A stretch of 33,642 bases of DNA, from positions 1 through 33,642 of the forward strand of contig JWZX01002533.1 in NCBI GenBank assembly GCA_001275005.1. Reading direction: 5' to 3'. Position numbers and translations under genes: made by a program. This stretch comes from Chrysochromulina tobinii (lineage: Eukaryota). Positions within the stretch are counted from its first letter, which is position 1. Every line of letters starts with the position of its first letter. The notes below the pieces were generated by a model, which saw nothing but the letters and a program-made list of their open reading frames with translations, did no database searches and had not been told where the DNA came from. This document shows, piece by piece, positions 1,966-24,842 of this stretch.

Positions 1966-2045
1966 ACGACGCGTTTAGGCGGCGACGCCCGACACGACGC
2001 ACTTCGGCGGCGACGCCCGACACGACGCGTTTAGGCGGCGACGCC
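1966..2045. repeat. 28-bp tandem repeat (about 3 copies) spanning the PDX stop codon and 3' UTR
   Basis: ACGACGCGTTTAGGCGGCGACGCCCGAC-like units start at 1966, 1994 and 2022. The last unit contains the stop codon (tta at 2031-2033). Confidence 0.85.
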
Positions 2046-3749
2046 GGGGTCGACGCCGACACGTCCCTTGAGGGTGAGCTTGTCGGTCACGTAGCTGCCG
2101 GGCTCATTCTCAAGCAGGCCGACCATCGCCTTGCCCAGCCCCGTCGAGACACGCGCCACAGTGAGCGGGTTCTGGTAGTGCGTGCACGCGTTGACCATCG
2201 CGCGCGCGCGCTGGGCCGGGTTCTCGCCCTTGAAGATGCCGCTGCCCACGAAGACGCCATCGCAGCCGAGCTCCATGAGCAAGGCCACATCCGCCGGTGT
2301 GGCCAGGCCGCCGGCAGCAAAGGTGACCACTGGTAAGCGGCCCGCGTCCTTTGTCTGCTGCACCAGCTCAAACGGGACGCGCAGCTCCTTGGCGTAGGCA
2401 AAGAGCTCGTCGTCGCGCATCGTGCTCAGCTTGCGGATCTCGGAGAAGACGGCGCGCGCGTGGCGCACGGCCTGGATCACGTTGCCGGTGCCGGCATTGC
2501 CCTTGAGACGAATCATAGCGGCCCCCTCGGAGATCCGGCGAAGTGCCTCGCCCAGGTCCTGCGCGCCGCAGACGAAGGGGATGCCGAAGCTGCGCTTGTC
2601 GATGTGGTGCGCCTCGTCCGCCGCGGTGAGCACCTCGGACTCGTCAATGCAGTCGACGTCGAGCGCCTCGAGAATCTTGGCCTCGTAAAAGTGGCCGATC
2701 CGGCTCTTGGCCATCACGGGGATCGAGCACGAGTTCATCACATCGATGATCATGGCCGGGTCGGACGAGCGCGCGACGCCGCCGTCGGCCTTGATGTCCG
2801 CCGGGATGCGCTCGAGCGCCATCACCGCCACGGCGCCAGCAGCCTCGGCGATGCGCGCCTGGTGGCCGTCGACGACATCCATGATCACGCCACCCTTTTG
2901 GAAGACCGCGAAGGCGCGCTTGGCGGCGGTTGAACCGTAGCCCATGCCGTGCGCGGGCGCCGCGATCCAGGGCGCCGCGACGCTGAAGTCCGGCACCGCC
3001 GCCACCTTGGACACCTCCTTGACCTGGCACACGTCCTTGAGGAACAGCTCGAGCCATGAGTCATCGGACGAGATTTCAGGATGGAAGCACGTCGCCATGA
3101 GCTTGTTCTGGCGGACGGCGACGACGGCGCCGTTGTCGCCGAGCTCGGGCACCTCGTCGTCGGCCGCGACTTGCGCGAGGATCTCAACGCCGTTGCGCAC
3201 CTTGGTCACCGCCGGCGCGCGAATGAAGTACGCCTTGTCGCCGCAGTTGGCCGCGCTGTTGGAGACCTCCATCGGACGGAAAGCCGACTTGGACTGGCGG
3301 CCGAAGGCGTTGCGCTTGACGGAGATGTCGAGGCCGCCGAGGAGCGGCTGCGCGGCACCGTCGTCGAGGTCCTGCGCCAACAGGATCAGGCCCGCGCACA
3401 CGCCCCACGCGGGCTTGCTCTTCACGAACTTCTGCAACGGCTCCAGCAGCTTGGCGTCGACGAGGCCGTACCCGATGGCGGTGCTCTCGCCGCCCGGAAG
3501 AATGATCGCGTCCACCGTTGCGAGCTCCTTGGGCGTGCGCACCTCGACGCCCTCGACGCCCTGGTAGCGCGCAAGCGCCTGCATGTGCTCTGCGAAGCCA
3601 CCCTGAATGGCAAGGACGCCAACCTTGAAGGGCGCGCCGGCGGACGCATGCACGGCGGCGCAGCGGGCGGCGGCGGCGGCCGGGCGCGCGGCCGGGGCGA
3701 TCGTGTACGCCTCGACGGCGACGGTGATGAACAGCAGCCGGCTCAGCAT
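2031..3749 (-). CDS. PDX2-PDX1: Pyridoxal 5'-phosphate synthase, fused glutaminase (Pdx2/PdxT) and synthase (Pdx1/PdxS), with N-terminal signal and transit-like peptide; 572 aa, intronless
   Basis: Pdx2 motifs: [29 protein letters not shown] (catalytic Cys), RNAFGRQ, FIRAP, FHPE (His/Glu). Pdx1 motifs: [64 protein letters not shown] at 3749 ([19 protein letters not shown]); the ORF track start at 3827 is non-ATG. Confidence 0.95.
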
Positions 3750-4770: not shown

Positions 4771-7700
4771 CTATTCGGCCGAGGACGCTGGGACCGGATG
4801 CTCAGCCCCCTGCCGCGTCGCCTTGCGCTTGCGCTTCTCGGCCTGCAGCTTGCTGTTCTGTGCCTCGATGACCTTCGCCGCTTTCTCCTGCTGCAGCTCA
4901 ACACGGCGCTTATTCTCCGAGCGGCTCCGATAATACATCCTGGCCTCCCGCTTGCGCGTCGCGTACTCATCGACCAACTTGCGCGCGTACACCCGTGGGT
5001 CGAGGCTCGGCCATGGGTCGGGCTTGAGGTCGTACCTGCATGCAATGAGGAGGGCCATCAGCATGCAATGAGGGAGGGAGGGTCGAGGCTCGGCCATGGG
5101 TCGGGCTTGAGGTCGTACGGAGGCTCGTCGTTGTATCTGCGGCCAGAGGGATCGGCATAGGGTGCAATTAGGGTGCAATTAGGGTGCAATTAGGGTGCAA
5201 TTAGGGTGCAATCTCAGAGTGTTTGGAGGCCATCAAGGGGCACTTGGAGGCCATCAAGGGGCACTTGGAGTGGCGCCATTCGTTACTTGATGAGCACGGA
5301 TGAGTACTCGGCGATGATGAGAGTCCGGTACAGGTTCGTCAAGATCCACAGCACGATGCACGTGAACGAGGTGAGGTAGATCAGGTCGATGACTGAGGGG
5401 AAGTCCGTCTCCATCGTAGGCCAGATGGTGGATGATTGCGCCATCTCCTTAAATGGAAGGGCGGTGGGCCGGCGCAGGAGGTAGATTGTGGTGCCTAGAG
5501 AGGTGATGACATTATGGAACGGGTACGCAGTCGGGTAGAGCAGATTGCCAGTCAGTGCGAAGGTGACCATCGCGATCAAGAGGAAGATGAGGGCAGGCAC
5601 AAGCTTGACGCATGCGCGGCCCATCGTGATGCGCATGAGGAAGAGCCTCTTGGAGACGATGGAGTAGTAGAGCGCGAGGCGCAGCACGCACCTGATGAGG
5701 GACGCAAACAGCGATCATCAGTGGTCATCAGCGGTCATCAGCGGTCCTTAGTGGTCGTCAGTGGTCATTAGCGGTCATCAGCGGTCATTAGCTGGCAAGT
5801 AGCAGAGCGCGAGGCGCGCAGCACGACACTAGCATCATCAGTGGGCATCAGAGCCATCAGCGGTCATCAGTGTCATCATTGTCATCAGTGTCATCAGCAC
5901 GCACACGAGCAGTGCCGCCCCAAACAATTGCGAGGAGTAGCGCATCGAGAAGAGCGTGCGCGCCATAGTGGGCATGTAGGGCGGTGGCCACGTGGCGTCT
6001 TCTTTGAATAAGACTGATGGAGCGCGTGAGAAGAGACCATCAGCGGTCATCAGCGGCCATCAGTGGTCATTAGCGGTCATCAGCGATCATCAGCGGCCAT
6101 CAGCGGTCATCCGCGGTCATCAGCGGCCATCAGTACCAATCCGTGGCGATCAGTAGCCATCAGAGGTCATCAGCATGCACACCCTGGAGAGCGTCCATCT
6201 CGGCATAATGGTAATCATCAGAGGTCATCAGCATGCACACCCTGGAGAGCGTCCATCTCGGCATAATGGTAATCATCAGAGGTCATCAGCATGCACACCC
6301 TGGAGAGCGTCAATCTCGGCGTTCTCGGTGCGTCGCACGAACCAGCCACTCACTCCGAGCGCGGCCGTGAGAAAGTGCGCGACCATCTCGGGCTTGACGA
6401 TGAACCAGACGGGGGCTCCTCCCACAGTACCGAGCGCCGCATCGACGCCGAAGAGTTTGCCGATCGTGTTCGAGGCCGCGATGCGCAGAAAGTTGATGAT
6501 GACTTGGAGGGCTCGAAGGCCGAGCCAAATGATGAGAAGGTATTCGAGGAAGTCGCCCATGAACGAATTGGACGAGAGCGAGCCTGCGATGAGGAGGAGG
6601 GCAAGTCGCAGCGGTCATTAGCGGCCATTAGCGGCCATTAGCGGCCATTAGCGGCCATTAGCGGCCATTAGCGGCCATTAGCGGCCATTAGCGGTCATTA
6701 GCGGTCATTAGGAGGAGGGCAATTCATTCGTGTGGACCTCCGCGGCAATCAACGACTGGACAGTGCTCCTCTCAGAGGTCATCAGAGGTCATCAAAGGTC
6801 ATCCTCAGAGGACATCCTCAGAGGACATCCTCAGTACCTGCAACGCAGCTAAACTGCACTTTCGCGTAGCCAGTGCGAATGAGCTCCGTCACGATCTGCG
6901 TGTTCGCAACGTGATCCGTCTGCGGGTTGTAAAAGGTCATGTCGATGCCCACCGCAAGCGTCTGGCGATCGAGCCACGAATTCTCGGTGAGCCCACGCAG
7001 CACGGTGCGCAGCTCGAAGAAGGTCAGATTCGGTGGAAGGGTAAGGGCGAAGCCGCCGGTAGCGGCTGCCTCAAAAGCCGGTACCTGAAAAGGGACGCGA
7101 TCAGAGGTCATCAGAGGTCATCAGAGGTCATCAGAGCTCATCAGAGCTCATCAGAGCTCATCAGAGCTCATCGGGACTCATCAGAGCTCATCAGGACTCA
7201 TCAGAGCTCATCAGAGCTCATCAGAGCTCATCAAAAGGCAATCATGGTTCATCGGTGGCCGCCTCCAAAGGAAGGTACCGTCGGCGACGGGAAACCATCA
7301 GAGGTCATTAGAGGCAATCACGGTTCATCTCCAAGGCAGGTACCGTCGGCGATGGAAAACCGAGCTCTTCGGCTGTTTGGTAAACGAAGGCGGGCAAGAG
7401 GCCAGTGTAGGTGGTACCATTCCAGCCAGTAAAGTTGGCAGAGCCCGCGCTGGGGCTGCCTCCACCCGATCTTGTGGCATTACTGGTACTTGTGCCGGCG
7501 CTGCCGGCGCTGTTGGCGCTGTCGGCGCTGGTGGTCAAGCGCTTCACAGACGGCCCCGGGCACGCGGGATAGCACTCGACACGTGGCACGTAGAAGGCTG
7601 CCGCGGCGGCCGTGCGCTCAGGCGGCGCATGGGGTGCCAACGGCCCGAAATTGGTCGTGACGGTGTTCTCGGAGGAGTAGCAGAGGGAGACGTTACCCGG

Positions 7701-10700
7701 GGAATCGTCAACCGCGGAGATCTTGGCGAGCTCACCCAATCCCACAGGGTCGGTCGAGTCGAGATCGGTGCTCGTGTATTCAAACGGCACCGATGATGGC
7801 TTGTACCTGCGAAGGAGGGACGTGGCGCCCTGGTGAGCGCGTGCATGCGAGGAAGGGGTGGGCTGGGGGGGCTTGTACCTGCGGGACGCGCATTGAGGCA
7901 CGGTCACCTCATTACCGCGCATGCTCGGCTATCAGAGGTCATCAGAAGCAATTAGAGGCAATCAGCGTACAGAGACTTGGGGATGGCCGTCAGAGGTCAT
8001 CAGAGGTCATCAGAGGCAATCAGCGTACAGAGACTTGGGGATGGCCGAGGAGCCATTCGACCAAGGCCACCAAATCGAGCCGCTCTCTACAAACATCATC
8101 CCCGGGCATAGTGCTCGGTCTGCGGTCGCCCCTCGGATCTGCATCAGCCGAATGCCGCCAAGCAGCAGGTTCTTGCCACGCACCACAATCGGCGCCGGCT
8201 CGATGAACTGTTGAGCTGTCGCGTTCATGAGCGGAGATACGATCTCGTCAGAGCAGAGTGGTCATCAGCGGTTATCAGCGGTCTCATCAGCAGAGATACG
8301 ATCTCGTCAGAGCAGAGTGGTCATCAGCGGTCATCAGCGGTCATCAGCGGTCTCATCAGCGGTCATTAGCGTACCGGTCTCATTAGAACAGAGAAGGAGC
8401 GCCAGTGGGCCGAGAAGGCAGTTTGGAAAGAGGACGTACGGCAATGAGTTGATGAGGAAGTCTTGGAACATGGACATCGAGTTGACGTGCGCCAGGTCGG
8501 TGAGCGAATCCGAGACGACGTATCTGCATGCAACGAGGAGGGCCATGCCATCAGCATGCAACGAGGAGGGCCATGCCATCAGCATGCAACGAGGAGGGCC
8601 ATGCCATCAGCATGCAACGAGGAGGGCCATGCCATCAGCATGCAATGAGGAGGGCCATGCCATCAGCATGCAATGAGGAGGGCCATGCCATCAGCATGCA
8701 ATGAGGAGGGCCATGCCATCAGCATGCAACGAGGAGGGCCATGCCATCAGCATGCAATGAGGAGGGCCATCAGCATGCAATGAGGAGGGCAATCAGCATG
8801 CAATGAGGAGGGCCATCAGCATGCAATGAGGAGGGCCATCAGCATGCAATGAGGGAAGGCTCTCCGCGAGACGAGACGTACTCGAAGGGCGTATTGAAAG
8901 AGTTATCAGAGGCAATCAGCGGAAGTCATCAGCGGTCATCAGCGTACTCGAAGGGCGTATTGAAAGAGTCATCAGAGGCAATCAGCGGAAGTCATCAGCG
9001 TACTCGAAGGGCGTATTGAAAGAGTCTTCGAGGGCGGAACACATCTCTCGTTGCGTCTCCACATGGGTCTTAATGAAGGCGACTTGATAGATTAAAATGG
9101 CCAGCGCGACGGTCTCAAACACCATCTTAAGCATCTCAAAGCGCGTGAGGAAGGTTGGACTCCAGGCGAAGAGGCGCGTACGAATATCGTCTTCGAAATC
9201 GCCCATGTCCTCGCCCTCCGCCCCGGCCATCCGTCTTGCGCTCGCTTTCTGCCTCGCGCGCGCCTGCAAGCAAAGGAGGGAATCACTCGGAGGCAATCAG
9301 AGGCGATCAGAGGCGATCAGAGGCAATCAGACGCGCGCCTGCATGAAACGAGGGACGCATTCGACCGTCATCAGTCGTCATCAGTGGCGCGTACCTTGAG
9401 CACGGTGTCCACCTCGTGCTCAATATTCAGTGGCCATCAGTGGCCATCATCAGTGGTCATCAGAGGCCATCAGCATGCACACCTTGAGCATCTTGTCTAC
9501 CTCAAGCCCGAGATTCCTAGCGTCCCTTGCATCGTCCTGAGCGTCCTCCTCCGCCGCGGCCACGGCGCCCACAGCCCCCTTTTGGGATGCCGAGCGCTCC
9601 TGATGAAGCGTAATCAAGAACAGCTTAGTGATAGTCCTCTGCGCGGAAAGGTCCAACGCCTCAAAGACCAACGTGCGCCGTAAAAAGTGGACGCCGTTCT
9701 GGTCGGTCACCACGTGCCGCAGAGGACTGATGTGCCAGTACTCACACGCGGTCTCAATGAGCCTCTCGAAGGTGACGTCGTACCTGCATGCAATGAGGAG
9801 GCCATCCGCATTCACACTGCATTCACACGCGGTCTCAATCAGCCTCCCGAAGGTGACGTCGTACGAGATCGGGAGCTCGAGTGACGAGATCGGGAGCTCG
9901 AAGTGACTCGGAGTCATTAGGGGTCATTAGGGGTCATTAGGGGTCATCAGGGTTCATGAGCGGTCATTACGAGATCGGGAGCTCGAGTGACTCGGAGTTG
10001 AAGTGCAGCTGCACCAACTTGTTGGGTTGCTGTGACGATCGCAGCAGGCGGTCGTCGAACAAGTTGCCTGCAAGGCGAGCGTGAGGCGTCATCACTGATC
10101 ATCAATGGCACTCGATCGCAATCAGAAGCACTCACCGGTAATCAGAGCCTCCTCGATCCGGTGCCTCTCGAGGCGTGCGTCGGCGCCCGGTGGCATCGAG
10201 ATGAGATGAGCTCGCGCAAGCTCGCGTAACAGGGCGAGCAGCGCCTTGCCATAGTCGATATGGAGCTGCGAGGCGAGCTTGGCTGCCATGAGCTCTGGTG
10301 GCTGATCCGCATCGCGCATCAGCTCCTCCGTGCGCTGCGTATGCATGCGCCCCATGTACGTGCGCAGCACCTCCTCGAGCTTGGCGGAGATGACCTGATG
10401 AGGGTGGCAATCAGAGGCTCATCAGGGGTCATCAGAGGCGCAGCACCCCCTCGAGCTTGGCGGAGATGACCTGAGGTGAGGTCGGGCGAGGTCGGCGAGG
10501 TCGGCGAGGTCGGTGAGGTCGGCGAGCAGAGGCCCGTGCGCTGATTGCGGGCCAATCAGGGGGCCATCACGGGCCAATCACGGGCTTCTCGTGACAATCT
10601 CGTGGCAATCTCGGGGCACTCCGAGGGGCACTCCGAAGGGAAAGCACTCGCCTGCGGCGGCGAGATCGGCGAGTCGAGGCCCTTGAGCTGATCCGCGAGC

Positions 10701-11140
10701 ACCGGTGCCAGCTGCTCCCGCAGCTCCTCGACGAGCTGCTTGCCGAGCGTCTTGGGCGGCAGCCGGGAGGCCATCACATCCGCCTGGATGATCGCCGCAT
10801 CCGACGGCTTCGTGGACGCCTGGAATGCCTTGGTGAGGGCGCGGAAAGTGCTAATGTCGCCGCCAGCGCCGCTCCCGCCGCCGCGACCAATTCCACCGAC
10901 GGGGCCGCCCGTCGCCGTGCACTCGACCGGCTCCGCGGAGGCGATCGGCGTGCGCGACACTGCATATTCATCCATGACGGTCTGCAGTGCATCCAACCGC
11001 GCCAGGACCGTCTCGAGCTCCTCTGCTAGACGCAGAGCCTCGTTAATGTGGAGGTCGTTGGACCCGAGGGCCTTCTCAAGCTCAAGGGCGCGTTTACGCA
11101 GCGCTACGATGTCTGTGCGGGTGCGGTAGTTGGCATCCAT
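4771..11140 (-). CDS. Polycystin (PKD2/TRPP-like) six-TM channel-family protein, 14 exons, about 1177 aa
   Basis: Hand-built exons: 11140-10652, 10394-10136, 10067-9971, 9783-9483, 9263-9004, 8523-8375, 8215-8029, 7806-7344, 7084-6838, 6583-6299, 6013-5905, 5691-5287, 5136-5119, 5035-4771. Total 3534 nt, open frame, all phases consistent, 12 GT-AG introns and 1 GC-AG intron; the acceptor at 8216 is the least certain. Polycystin TOP-domain motifs KNLLLGGIRLMQIR, GGF and LTENSWLDRQTLAVGIDMTFYNPQTD. Six hydrophobic helices, ending LWILTNLYRTLIIAEYSSV. Confidence 0.85.
5036..5118 (-). other. Intron 13 of the polycystin gene: 39-bp exon duplicate plus 44-bp filler
   Basis: 4997-5035 (exon) and 5080-5118 (intron) are identical 39-mers. 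The donor GT comes from the duplicate; the acceptor ...CCTCATTGCATGCAG comes from the filler. Confidence 0.85.
5158..5212. repeat. 11-bp tandem repeat (TAGGGTGCAAT)x5 containing TTAGGG, inside intron 12 (5137-5286)
   Basis: Five perfect copies read directly. Confidence 0.95.
6160..6320. repeat. 58-bp tandem repeat made of exon-10 3' end, splice donor and filler
   Basis: CCTGGAGAGCGTC(C/A)ATCTCGGC at 6183, 6241 and 6299 (the last is exonic); period 58. Confidence 0.9.
6610..6711. repeat. 10-bp satellite (ATTAGCGGCC/ATTAGCGGTC)n in intron 9 (6584-6837)
   Basis: About 9-10 tandem copies, flanked by GGAGGAGGGCAA on both sides. Confidence 0.9.
7100..7232. repeat. 10-bp satellite (TCAGAGGTCA/TCAGAGCTCA)n in intron 8 (7085-7343)
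   Basis: About 13 tandem copies; same family as the fillers in other introns and at 25350-25425. Confidence 0.9.
8526..8855. repeat. Minisatellite in intron 5 (8524-9003): 8 x 28-bp, 4 x 23-bp and a partial unit
   Basis: GCATGCAA(C/T)GAGGAGGGCCATGCCATCA starts at 8526, 8554 ... 8722. The 23-bp variant starts at 8750, 8773, 8796 and 8819. The same unit forms the 3' ends of introns 3 and 13. Confidence 0.95.
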
Positions 11141-11407
11141 GCCCTGATGCGCTGCGCTCTGATGCGCAGCGCGCTTGTGCAAGCGGAGGCCGTCACGCAC
11201 GAGCACAAAGATGGAAATGACGAAATGGAACCGTTTTGAGAAATCTGCCCGGGCTCACATGTATCGAAGGGAGAAGCTGCGAGTTTTCGCAATGCTTCCC
11301 AAGCGCCGCGCGCCTTCGGGAAAACTTTCGTGGCACGAACGCGTACGCGTCGCGTCTGGAGCCCTTCCATCCAGTCATCTATCAGCACGCGCCCCACGCC
11401 ACCCGGG

Positions 11408-12991
11408 ATGCCAAAGACCGAGCGCGCTCCTCTCCATCGCCTCGCCGCCGCCGCCACGCCGCTGGGACGCGCGCCCACAGCCGGCGCTCGCCCCTCGCTG
11501 CGGCCGCGCACCGACGTGAAGCACGACGAGTTGGAGACCTTTCAGTGGGGCGCGGACGACTCTGACGCGCTCGATACGTCGCCGCCACGCCAACGCCCGC
11601 GCAGCTCGCTCCAGACCCGCGACATCCTTCACGGCACGCCCTTCAACAATTGCGCGCGCTCGTGGAACCCTGAGGAGGACACGCGGCTGCGGAACGCGAT
11701 CGACGATGTGGGCTGCAAGTGGATGGCGGTGGCTCAGCTGGTGGGCGGCGGACGATCTCCCGCGATGTGCCGCAACCGGTTCCAGCGCATGCAGGCCCCC
11801 ATCCACGGCAAACGAGCTGTCAACCTCTGCTCGGCGTGCGGTCAGCCCAAGCGTGGACACACGTGCATCGCCAAACTCGACGCCAAGCTCCAGCGGCATC
11901 CCCCCTTGCCTTTCGTGGCGGCGGCCCCCGGGGGCGCGCCCGATGACGTGGTCGACACCCTCCGGCCGCGCGCTCTCCACGGGGATCAACTGCGGGCCCC
12001 CTTGCGCGATCTGCCCGTCCCTCGCCTACCCTCCTCGTCCCTCTCCGTCCCTCGCCGTCCCTCGCCGTCCCTCTCCGTCCCTCGCCGTCCCTCGCCGTCC
12101 CTCGGCCTCCCGGCGACCCTTGAGGTGCCCGACATGGCGCCCGAAGTTGGGGTGGACGCGTCATACGTGGATGAGTTCGACGCGATGACCGAGTACGATG
12201 ACGAGCCGCACATGGCGCTCGACGAGTGCCCTGCGAGCGGCGGCGCGAGCGGCGGTGGTGGCAGTGGCGGCGGCGGCGGCGGCACGGGCGCCATGTCGGG
12301 CACAGGCACAGCAGGTTGGTCGGCTTTCGAGCGCCATCTCGGGCGCCCCGGCTCCGCCACGGGCGCCATCTCGGGCGGCACGTCACTGTCTACCTCCGAG
12401 TCATCGCAGCTGGGCGGGATGATGCTCGAGCACCATGAGGCAGCCTATTCCTCGGCCTACTGGACGCTCGCGGCGCTCGGCATGGCGCTCGGCTCGCCCG
12501 CGACGACGCCCGAGCCCACCCCACAGCCGCTCGTGCCCTCTTCCTCCTTCGACGTGTCCACGGCGCTCGGCACGGCGCTCGACGGCGTGAAGACGCTCGA
12601 CACGGCGCTCGACGGCGTGAAGACGCTCGGCGGCGCCATCGTGAGCGTCATCGCGGAGCTCGACTTCACGCCCGCGTCGCATTTCGTCAGCGAGCTCCTC
12701 GGGCTCGAGCGCCATACCGAGCTGGAGTGAGTTTCGTCAGCGAGCTCCTCGGGCTCGAGCGCTGTGTCGAGCGCTGTGTCGAGCGCCATACCGAGCTGGA
12801 GTGAGCGAGGGAGCAGGCACGTGCGATGGTGGGTATCTCGTCCGCCATGCCCACGAGAGCGTCGGCGAAGCCGATGGTGGGGCATCGCATGCGTCAGCTC
12901 CACATCTCTCACCTCATGTTCATCTCTCACTCCATCTCGGACCACTAGCCCGCCCTCGCACGCCTCAAACTTCATCGCGGACGTCGTGTAG
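11408..12991 (+). CDS. Myb/SANT-domain protein with a CxxC...HxC Zn-knuckle-like motif; probable exons 11408-12726 and 12949-12991 (about 453 aa)
   Basis: RSWNPEEDTRLRNAIDDVGCKWMAVAQLVGGGRSPAMCRNRFQRM (Myb repeat) followed by CSACGQPKRGHTC. First ATG at 11408. The apparent stop at 12728-12730 lies within a consensus donor GTGAGT (12727); splicing to ...CCACTAG (12948) restores the frame (ELDPPSHASNFIADVV*). Confidence 0.75.
12015..12105. repeat. 10-bp tandem repeat (CCGTCCCTCG)n, about 9 copies, within the Myb ORF
   Basis: Read directly; translates as VPRRPSPSLS repeats. It could alternatively be part of an unrecognised intron. Confidence 0.85.
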
Positions 12992-13891: not shown

Positions 13892-16800
13892 ATGGGGCAA
13901 GGCTTCACCCATGTCGCTGGTCCGAAGCCCCCGTCGTGGCTCTCCGACTGCGCCGTGCTAGAGCCGACGGAGTGCATCTCTCGGCCTGAGTGTGGCTTCT
14001 GCTTCACTTCTTTTTCGTGCATGCCTGGCAACGCGAGTGGGCCCGCGGTGGGAGCGCTGCCATGCATTCCGAATCCGGCCGACCCGACGATCCAACCGCC
14101 GGATCACACCTACGACCCTGCCTCGGCCCGCTTCGGCTGGCTGCAGGCCAACTGCTCGTGGGCATACGACAATGCAACCTACGATGCCATCCTCGCCAGG
14201 CACGACTTTGGCGGACCTGGTGGGGGCCCAGCTGGATACGGTCCTCTGAAGAGCTTTGACACGATGCGCCCTCCGCGCTCGCCGTCCATCGACTCGGTTC
14301 CCCCCGAGTGGGACGCGCCGTGCACAGCTGGTGGCCAGCGGCGGTGGGATCCGCTCACCAACTGCAACCCGTCCCAAAAACCGGACGATCCGTGGCTCGG
14401 GCCCTGCAAGGACAACACCTACGCGTGGGGAGGCACCCGCTGCCTGTGCCCCGAGGGGCGGGTGGGCCTCACATGCGGCGGCTGTGCCTCCGATGCCGGC
14501 TGCGGCGACGGGTTCCAGTGTGACCTGCCGGCCTTTTCCCCGGTCGAGGAAGTGCACCTCGGCTGCATAGTGCCGTCGCGTTCGAGCATCTCCTTGTCTC
14601 CGGTTGTTGACCCAAAGTACATCTTCGGCTTCACAGGCACAGATAATGCGCAGCCGTCGTTCGACTTGCGCCTCGGGCCAGGCACGTGGCAGGCGACACT
14701 CAAGAAAGCCATCCCGTGGCCCCTCGGCCAGATCGTGACCTTCCTGAGCGTCAAGCCGGCGCCGCCCCAGGAGGGCAAGTATTCGCGGCTGCTCTCCGGC
14801 ATCTCCTTTGTAGCTGCGGTGCACAGCGAGCAGTACGTCACGGCGATTTCGCACACCTGCCCAGACAAGAAGGCGCTGGGGTTCGACTCGCCCTTTGACA
14901 GCGGTGCCACGTGCCTTCGGTGGACTGTGAGCGACAAGGTGAAGAGCGACGACTTCTTCAGCACCTCGCCGAATTTCTGCCCAGCGAAAGGTCCATGCCG
15001 GCTGCCCAGCTCTAGCTCCCCCGGCGGCTGGGCACGCTTCGATCAAGACACGAAGTCGATCGCGACGTACATCAAGCCGCCGCTCTCTGTCGACTGCCAG
15101 CTGCCGCGGACGCACGACTCCACGCACACAGTCTGCTCGCTCCAGACGAATTACAAGATCCTCGGGTCTCCGTTCATCATCAACATGGATTGCGAGGTGG
15201 CGGCGGGCCGATGCAATGCCGCACGCAACTTTTCGTATCCGTCACCACCATCCGCGCCGCCGCCGCCGCCGCCGTCGCCACTGAACCTCCTCGAGCAGTG
15301 TGCACTGCCCGAGCACTCGCGCCGGTGCACCTGGGGGGCTCTGTTAGTGCCCCTCGGGCTGCTGCTCGTGCTCATGGGCTCTGTGGCCTTGTGCCACCTG
15401 CTCAGCCACTGCTACGACAGGCGGGACCACGGTATCGCACGCCGCCGCTCCGCGCGAAAGCCCCGCCCCCTTGGCAGCCGCCGCCACCGACGCGCCGCCG
15501 ATGTCGGTACGTCGTCCGCGTCGGCAGACGCCCCAATGCCAGTAGTCAGCGTCCCGCCGAGGCGGGCAGCGCGTGTGAAGTGGGCGTCGGAGAGTTCCAT
15601 CGCCATAGAGCTGCCCTCCGACGCGAGCTCGGCTGCGCTGGTGTCTAGCTGGGCCAGCCCGGCGGGTGGCAACAGAACTCAGCTGACCACCGAGTTTCGT
15701 CAGCAGACCACCCTCTCCGACGGTGGTGCATCACTCAACGCGGCGGAGGGCGGTGGTGGCGCCGCATCTCCCGCCGCCGTCGCAGAGGCGGGCGGACGAA
15801 TCGGTGCAGACGAAGCGGGCGAGTGTGGGCAGATTGCCCAGCGGTGTACGACTCTGGGCGTCCTGCCCGTTGCGGCCATCGCCACCTGGCTGCCTGTAGA
15901 GCCATCGCCTCCGAAAACCACGGCGACGGCTCCGCCGAGCTCCCTCGCCGCATCCATGCTCATCCCCCCCAACGCCTCCATCCGGCAGCTCCCCGCGAAC
16001 ACGACGTCCTCCTCGCCCGCGGCCCTGACAGCCGCCGCCGCGCAGCCGCCTCCCCCGCCGCCGCCCCTCAGCTGGCATCACGTGAGCTACCGCGCGGGCA
16101 GAAACGGCCCCCGGCTGCTCCAGCCGTGCACTGCCGAGCTCCATGGTCGCGGTGCGACCAGCAGTGGGCTCTGGGCTATGATCGGCCCGAGCGGCGCGGG
16201 GAAGTCGACACTACTCAGCGTGCTGGCCGGCCGTCGAGAAGAGGTCTCCGTCGAGGCGGGCGCCGGCGAGCGTGCCGAGGTACGCCTTTACGGCCAGCGC
16301 ATGGGGAGCGCCGCCCGGCGCGCTCGAATCGGTTTCGTGACGCAGGAGGACGTGCTGCCCCCTACCTCGACGGTGCGTGAGCATCTCGACTTCCACGCGC
16401 GCCTTCGCGCTCCATGGCTCTCGCGCCGCGCGCGCCGGCAGCTGGTCGAGGCCAGCCTAGGAGCGCTCGGCCTCGGACCGCTCGCTGATCGGTGCATCGG
16501 CGACGGCTTCATACGCGGGCTCTCGGGCGGCGAGAGGCGCCGAACGTCCGTAGGCTGCGAGCTCATCGTCGCGACTGCGCGCACGGCGCATGAGTACGAG
16601 CGCCGTGTCGAGCGCATGGCTGATCGGCATGGCACGAGCGCGAGTGCCCACATGTCGAGCGCGCCGCGCGTACCGCTGCTGCTACTCGACGAGCCCTTCT
16701 CAGGCCTCGACTCGCTCAACGCGCGGCTACTTCTCCACGCGCTCGTCAGCATGGTGAACGGCAACGGCGACGACGCGGCCGACGCGGAGGTTGGCAAGGC

Positions 16801-24732: not shown

Positions 24733-24842
24733 CCGACCTAACAGCCCCTCCTTTCTCATCGTCGATTGTGAATTGGAGGGCTCAAGTTGCTCCGACCTAA
24801 CAGCCCCTCCTTTCTCATTGTCGATTGTGAATTGGAGGGCTC
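24733..24842. repeat. 51-bp direct repeat (1 mismatch) separated by 8 bp
   Basis: 24733-24783 and 24792-24842; spacer AAGTTGCT. Confidence 0.9.

Follow-up and report, generated by a model that had tools for sequence, protein, structure and literature searches.

The window, by which we mean the whole stretch of DNA analysed, covers 33,642 nt of Chrysochromulina tobinii contig JWZX01002533.1. At 4771..11140 on the minus strand it holds a gene of 14 exons for a protein of 1177 aa, a putative polycystin/PKD2-like channel protein to judge from its domains (Pfam Polycystin_dom, E 2e-10; Ion_trans, E 0.007, below its cut-off). The gene model agrees with the spliced protein P0147 across 658 aa, and all 13 introns are supported by RNA, introns 1-4 and 6-13 by joints and intron 5 by an RNA loose end with exon-6 letters; runs X18-X21, which hold next to none of the words, were left out of the RNA/DNA comparison. 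Intron 1 (10395..10651, minus strand) is of the GC-AG type, and GC donors are common in Emiliania according to the accessible part of PMC4028052. A neighbouring gene has one named homologue, from Pleurochrysis; like the GC donor, it points to a haptophyte as the probable host. Unspliced RNA contigs across this intron (10368-10680) occur at lower depth in all three runs, either because the GC-AG intron is retained or because the library contained DNA. Elsewhere in the window, a single minus-strand frame of 572 aa at 2031-3749 combines SNO and SOR/SNZ domains and is predicted to encode a fused PDX2-PDX1 vitamin B6 synthase. Around 15240-15279, two other assemblies (L001:1-524 and L007:1-524) diverge from the window at a poly-proline repeat into different coding sequence, as the result of either a paralogue or a misjoin in one assembly.

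Intron 3 (9784..9970; 187 nt, GT-AG, phase 2) lies on the minus strand, as do all of its parts, between exon 3 (9971..10067) and exon 4 (9483..9783). The last 28 nt of exon 3 (9998-9971) are the template of two exon-end copies inside the intron, and the exon ends in CTC, with no AG. Read along the minus strand, the intron runs from filler A through the two exon-3-end copies and an exon-4-start copy to filler B, and filler makes up 95 of its 187 nt. Filler A (9915..9970, 56 nt) carries the working donor (GTA) and 10-nt repeats with the branch-point-like motif CTRAY, and is the putative second insertion. The first exon-3-end copy (9886..9914, 29 nt) has one extra T, which is apparently missing in two allele translations (P0114 and P0123); the second (9865..9885) is an exact 21-nt tandem unit, present once in the window and twice in L002, L004 and L006. 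The exon-4-start copy (9823..9864, 42 nt) has two mismatches to exon 4, at copy positions 18 and 25, and its first GT (9864-9863) is the presumed original donor. Filler B (9784..9822, 39 nt), the putative first insertion, is an acceptor module common to introns 5 and 13 of the gene. An earlier note, made from the letters of this DNA, had described a spliced-type junction within the intron, set between a donor-side and an acceptor-side filler. Both observations hold: in 9885-9823, an exact match to the final 21 nt of exon 3 leads straight into a copy of the opening 42 nt of exon 4, and filler A (9970-9915) and filler B (9822-9784) lie on either side. The other exon-3-end copy (9914-9886), upstream of the junction copy, goes beyond that account. 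In the control against sham junctions that the note had called for, intron 3 reached a junction-anchored score of 21, while the maximum among 150 pseudo-junctions from the same CDS was 5.

The intron and its buried junction copy are real. RNA contigs in all three RNA runs omit exactly the 187 nt, with the exon's letters and 0 differences, which disposes of the objection that the internal copy might be the real exon path. Misassembly, the other objection raised, fails as well: a DNA run spans 9302-9942 and 9917-11200 with 0 differences and no intron-skipping joint, though this run possibly derives from the window's own culture, and its two contigs overlap within the 10-nt repeat, so that the unit count is less sure there. 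The same layout is found in three wild alleles at 91-96% identity (L002, L004 and L006) and in three same-strain records. It is extremely unlikely that the copy serves as an alternative in-frame exon or results from misassembly. In all four DNA alleles the stretch between a cryptic AG, located in the first exon-end copy, and the acceptor has a length divisible by three and no stops, and contigs do lose rare isoforms; against this, RNA contains the outer junction only, amino-acid changes pile up in the copy while the exon has none, and the T that sets the frame is the one apparently missing in two translations. As for an artefact, the longest exact word shared between intron 3 and either genomic flank is 24 nt, and independent assemblies agree.

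Copies and layers in the other introns

Buried copies are not confined to intron 3. In ten of the 13 introns, a flanking-exon copy scores above all 150 controls, and introns 3, 5 and 8 also exceed all 150 by the junction-anchored score. Introns 1 and 4 fall short of significance by that strict score (p 0.07 and 0.08), and we interpret the internal site of intron 1 as a buried acceptor and that of intron 4 as a buried donor. No exon copy was found in introns 2, 9 and 12.

The simplest arrangement is that of intron 13 (5036..5118, minus strand), a one-layer intron that opens with an exact copy of the first 39 nt of exon 14, followed by the same acceptor module as in introns 3 and 5; its RNA joint, found in three of four runs, has 39 ambiguous letters. 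Intron 8 (7085..7343, minus strand) has an outer donor layer over a degenerate junction copy (7296-7257) with a buried donor at 7278. Among 17 unspliced exon-8 translations, 12 carry both layers and five end in the buried layer only; these one-layer alleles could be deletions from the two-layer state, which counts against reading them as a record of two insertions. On the donor side of intron 5 (8524..9003, minus strand), two layers cover a degenerate junction copy at 8903-8867, which has G where the mRNA has A, and the acceptor module of this intron is amplified. The copies in introns 5 and 8 had both been reported in the earlier note, and both score above all 150 controls, the one in intron 5 narrowly (4.5 vs 3.5). 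The intron-5 acceptor module (window 8522-8839) comprises about 12 tandem copies, compared with about three in L006, where the intron measures 210 nt rather than 480.

Further arrangements occur in the remaining introns, all on the minus strand. Intron 11 (5692..5904) shares its first 10 nt with the start of exon 12 and contains a degenerate exon-12 copy at 5834-5798. Intron 4 (9264..9482) contains an older exon-end copy (about 9430-9395) along with a buried donor and a buried acceptor, and in L006 it has an extra acceptor layer. In intron 1, a 33-nt copy of the start of exon 2 lies behind the buried acceptor, and there is a degenerate copy of the end of exon 1 that is missing in L004. Intron 7 (7807..8028) has a duplicated donor with a 19-nt exon copy and a duplicated acceptor with a 9-nt exon copy, which flank an inner intron-like stretch, and intron 10 (6014..6298) has a 58-nt tandem duplication spanning the donor, with 22-nt exon-end copies. 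A 12-nt word of exon 2 (10266..10277, minus strand) is duplicated in L006 only, around a 66-nt filler that starts with GT. The resulting 78-nt GT-AG insertion (L006:468-545) consists of the 66 nt, made of 11-12-nt repeats, and the 12-nt duplication that gives the AG; it is in frame and free of stops. From its sequence we consider it a candidate newborn intron, whose acceptor would come from the duplicate.

The starts of the introns also resemble the exons that follow them. Over the first 15 nt, introns 8, 11 and 13 match the next exon at 12, 10 and 15 nt, and across the gene intron starts are more like their own next exon than other exons (permutation p 0.003). Six of the 13 downstream exons start with GT, compared with 4.2% in the background, and four start with GTAC (background 0.45%); an excess of GT at exon starts is also expected from a preference for proto-splice sites.

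Drift of the buried copy and the intron-less sister haplotype

The open frame that runs through the copy, as read by gene callers, yielded translations of many alleles. Among 18 intron-bearing translations, drawn from the 15 of 52 and 5 of 5 cluster members listed and by nature missing alleles that contain stops, the copy varies at 6 of 14 residues and exon 4 at none of its first 14, which are invariant in 18/18 (Fisher p 0.016; P0116 and P0118, which do not extend to the site, were excluded). The four DNA alleles agree with this: the exon-4-start copy has four variable sites in 42 nt, the exon start has none, and in L004 and L006 the old donor GT in the copy has become GA. The buried copy is therefore dead sequence that is drifting. 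Layers differ among alleles too, as intron 3 of L002 and L006 has an extra 76-nt donor layer. Just one change in the copy is common to all four DNA alleles, and it makes CTGAT (window 9842-9838, minus strand), while filler B has CGGAT (window 9808-9804, minus strand) where its sister modules have CTGAT; on these letters, the exon-4 copy possibly now supplies the branch point of intron 3.

The intron is missing from a close relative. In the sister cluster P0106, exon 3 runs directly into exon 4 in 9/9 listed members. Seven of these nine frames begin in the tail of intron 2 and all nine terminate in the head of intron 4, which marks them as genomic sequence without intron 3; here and for the outgroups, the states are those of protein translations. 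The sister-cluster sequence P0126 occurs on 62 contigs of up to 10 kb. Within exon 4, P0122, P0129 and P0132 are mosaics of the intron-bearing and intron-less haplotypes, which suggests recombination or chimeric assembly between the two types. Retained codons allow the buried copy to be dated. Residue 7 of the copy is R in 18/18 allele translations, as in its own exon, and K in both the sister P0106 and the outgroup P0107; the derived R therefore makes the copy younger than the split from the sister. In intron 4, which the sister shares, the exon copy holds the sister's E-H residues where the present exon has G-L, as expected of an older event.

More distant relatives make the history of the site less simple. 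P0107 (54% identity, on one 551-nt contig) lacks intron 4, and its intron-like N-terminus ends at the intron-3 site, which counts against a gain in the present lineage. The far outgroup P0228, which may be either genomic or spliced, reads through the site, and so does P0229, with an apparent intron about 11 nt upstream; the repetitive P0227 (29% identity, a low-complexity match) was omitted from the outgroup alignment. With the tree assumed from identity, a gain combined with a loss is as parsimonious as two gains. When 285 candidates were searched for longer homologues of exon 4, none emerged, a result of little weight.

An old intron at this site would have had its donor and acceptor duplicated, after which the inner intron between the exon copies was precisely lost, by cDNA recombination or by deletion at a 3-nt GTA repeat, with the sister losing the whole intron independently. 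The same-site intron-like stretch of P0107 speaks for such a history, and the nested precursor on which it depends, with donor and acceptor both duplicated, is seen in introns 4 and 7. We nevertheless regard it as unlikely. It requires three events and an additional, independent loss in the sister; it would not lead one to expect outer donors to start as a copy of the next exon, as those of introns 8, 11 and 13 do; and P0228 and P0229 read through the site. In addition, parallel gains at the same site account for 47.8% of new introns in Daphnia according to the accessible part of PMC4202315. We also compared the N-terminus of P0107 with filler B and saw no likeness beyond the acceptor-derived C-R, an argument that is weak at this distance. 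The earlier note had held that the intron records its own origin whichever way it arose. This stands only if the intron was gained here, and the same-site intron of a distant relative leaves a small but real chance that it was not.

Proposed origin of intron 3

We think it likely that intron 3 was built by two DNA-level duplicating insertions and that the internal junction is the original insertion site, now buried. Successive duplicative insertions had been one of two origins put forward in the earlier note, and it is supported by a sister haplotype without the intron, by intron 13 with its single layer, and by intron 8, whose alleles have one layer or two. First, an uninterrupted site would have taken a short filler ending in the branch/acceptor module, with duplication of 42 nt of the downstream exon; the initial GT of the upstream duplicate would then have acted as donor, and the 81-nt insert would have been spliced out with the protein unchanged. 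A second insertion would have duplicated about 30 nt of the end of exon 3, plus GTA, around the donor-side filler. The outermost donor is the one in use, as the RNA shows, and the old exon end and old donor would thereby have been left inside the intron, the old site being buried because use of the outermost donor preserves the protein. Later tandem duplications, seen as differences between alleles, would have added the 21-nt units and, in some alleles, the 76-nt donor layer. What this sequence of events connects are states observed in the gene: use of the outer splice sites, a drifting copy, polymorphism of the layers, a sister that lacks the intron at the protein level, and a one-layer intron.

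The order of the two insertions, filler B and then filler A, follows from the end of exon 3, which is CTC and offers no AG. The note had proposed to order the events by the divergence of the left and right copies. This does not work, because both copies are in every intron-bearing allele seen and thus predate the sampled alleles (4 of 42 sites variable in the exon-4 copy). Two observations count against two insertions: no one-layer allele of intron 3 was found among the 18 intron-bearing translations listed or the three wild DNA alleles, and the likeness of the outer donor of intron 3 to exon 4 is limited to 3 nt, no more than the donor consensus could produce by itself.

All intron-bearing alleles seen have both fillers and both copies, and adjacent layers overlap by 2-3 nt where they meet, as would also result from a single complex repair event in which several template switches furnished an intron-less site with fillers A and B and the junction copy in one step. 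Such an event is highly unlikely, since alleles gain or lose layers singly in introns 3, 4, 5 and 8, and one-layer introns exist.

The second origin offered in the note, a cDNA fragment used as repair template, can be widened to any piece of cDNA, mRNA or intron-less allele patched into an existing intron during repair. The junction is exact, as such a patch requires, and this is equally predicted if the copy retains the old donor, for the letters of the old donor in intron 3 are the same as those of the spliced junction. Intron-less haplotypes do co-occur with intron-bearing ones, and the mosaics P0122, P0129 and P0132 suggest that recombination, or chimeric assembly, can bring the two together. 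We consider a patch very unlikely and unneeded, with no positive evidence in its favour. The copy has the V and R of its own haplotype, not the T and K of the intron-less one. In intron 5 it has a donor-type G where the present mRNA has A, a difference that a later synonymous change in the exon could explain under either model, and GT is retained in the copies at places where the mRNA reads AT (intron 5) or GC (intron 4). Moreover, GT follows every exon-end copy in introns 3, 4, 5, 7, 8 and 10, no copy extends across two junctions, and no poly(A) was seen. There is a caution in this for other genomes, as a spliced-looking junction within genomic DNA is by itself not evidence of reverse transcription.

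Returning to the two duplicating insertions, their likely cause would be the repair of a staggered break, or a template switch that copied filler from other introns. An origin in a DNA break and end joining is suggested by the scar that it would have left. Cut-and-paste transposases make fixed short duplications, and the variable duplication lengths here (10-42 nt) argue against one. Such lengths suit fill-in at staggered breaks or a template switch; fill-in is described in the accessible part of PMC8355091 as making small tandem duplications. The filler may itself have come from target-primed reverse transcription. That process also yields variable duplications.

Relation to known routes of intron gain and source of the filler

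Where new spliceosomal introns come from is a long-standing question, and most gained introns bear no trace of their source. In this one gene, intron-less, one-layer, two-layer and further-layer states can be read from living alleles, which makes a mechanism of intron birth testable in wild populations and in culture. We compared the pattern with published systems as they are described in the accessible parts of the papers cited. It is most like the staggered-break neointrons of Daphnia pulex, in particular the 'staggered-then-staggered' class (PMC4202315). As there, the intron is missing in close relatives (P0106, 9/9 listed, at the protein level), yet P0107 has an intron-like stretch at the same site; an exon segment is duplicated (42 nt in intron 3, where it is now internal, 39 nt in intron 13 and 12 nt in L006); and secondary rounds with internal repeats appear as the allelic layers of introns 3, 4, 5 and 8. 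However, the exon repeats of Daphnia measure 4-12 bp and those here 10-42 nt, and Daphnia inserts average 78% AT, whereas our fillers, at about 50% GC and with branch-point-like repeats, are not AT-rich inserts without a source. Later rounds here also cross splice sites and bury a whole spliced-type junction, which the accessible text of PMC4202315 does not describe for Daphnia.

The gene also resembles introners in which the target-site duplication provides one of the splice sites, such as those of Symbiodinium and Polarella classes 4/5 and 6/8/10 (10.1101/2020.10.14.339549), as well as an introner family of Chrysochromulina sp. with a 4-bp duplication (10.1101/2022.06.06.494994). In both cases the insert brings one splice site, the duplicated exon gives the other, and the mRNA is unchanged. 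One carried and one duplicate-derived site are confirmed by RNA for intron 13 and are probable for intron 3, and both orientations occur here, with the donor from the duplicate in intron 13 and the candidate acceptor from the duplicate in L006. Introners have fixed duplications of 3-8 nt, often terminal inverted repeats, and many near-identical copies; here the duplications measure 10, 12, 33, 39 and 42 nt at different sites, and no terminal inverted repeats of intron 3 are among the 25 longest of 68 inverted pairs, a feature that many introners lack as well. A third likeness is to tandem genomic duplication of an AGGT-bearing exon segment, in which the duplicate gives a splice site and the coding sequence stays intact (PMC3443670; PMC3265369 also bears on this route). 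In that model both sites come from the duplicate and the intron is all exon copy, whereas exon 3 ends in CTC, more than half of intron 3 is filler, and only the donor would come from the duplicate, with the acceptor and branch region from foreign filler. Intron 3 is accordingly filed as a variant, and not a member, of these three classes: its filler is not AT-rich, its duplications are not of fixed length, and its two splice sites do not both come from a duplicated AG|GT. We found no description of layered or buried junction copies in haptophyte introns in the literature outside subscription journals and the supplements of the introner papers, which may list the filler family; the accessible parts of PMC2395259 and PMC12130899 contain nothing specific on this pattern.

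In the fillers, units of 10-11 nt are arrayed one after another, with many occurrences of the branch-point-like CTRAY, of which there are 116 in 2836 nt of intron and seven in 3534 nt of CDS. The fillers have modules in common with other introns, and some filler words have a very high DNA depth and are therefore common in the genome. In two scans, viral contigs gave 0 stretches with filler motifs. The exact acceptor 20-mer is confined to this gene in 8/8 stretches; that the module is strictly private to the gene is a proposal weakened by another DNA contig (run X2) with a 21-nt version of the acceptor-plus-exon word.

Introns 3, 5 and 13 combine the same acceptor module with near-identical exon starts. 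Those following introns 3 and 13 are alike at 10 of 12 nt, and the CDS contains no other second match that reaches 9 of 11 nt. Across the gene, similarity of acceptors is correlated with similarity of exon starts (Mantel r 0.40, p 0.004), a post hoc result driven by these three introns, and the donor-side counterpart is absent (r -0.10, p 0.83). A doubtful idea is that intron ends spread in cis: a copy of one intron's acceptor module would be placed at a similar exon site of that gene, with about 10 nt of exon-start homology as guide and possibly the gene's own pre-mRNA as template, to give a new, precise intron with a long duplication. If true, this would be an ongoing, homology-guided making of introns without a transposase, polymorphic in lake populations.

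A window-wide scan for one-layer introns recovered both of those in this gene, a further one at 25444-25334 on the minus strand, and ten further rows. The additional case is a predicted 111-nt intron of another gene, and its sequence starts with an 18-nt near-copy of the start of the next exon. Outside introns, direct duplications of about 40-50 nt lie at 12684-12806 and 24734-24841, one of them across the stop codon of a plus-strand gene; by their sequence, these possibly arose from the same mutational process.
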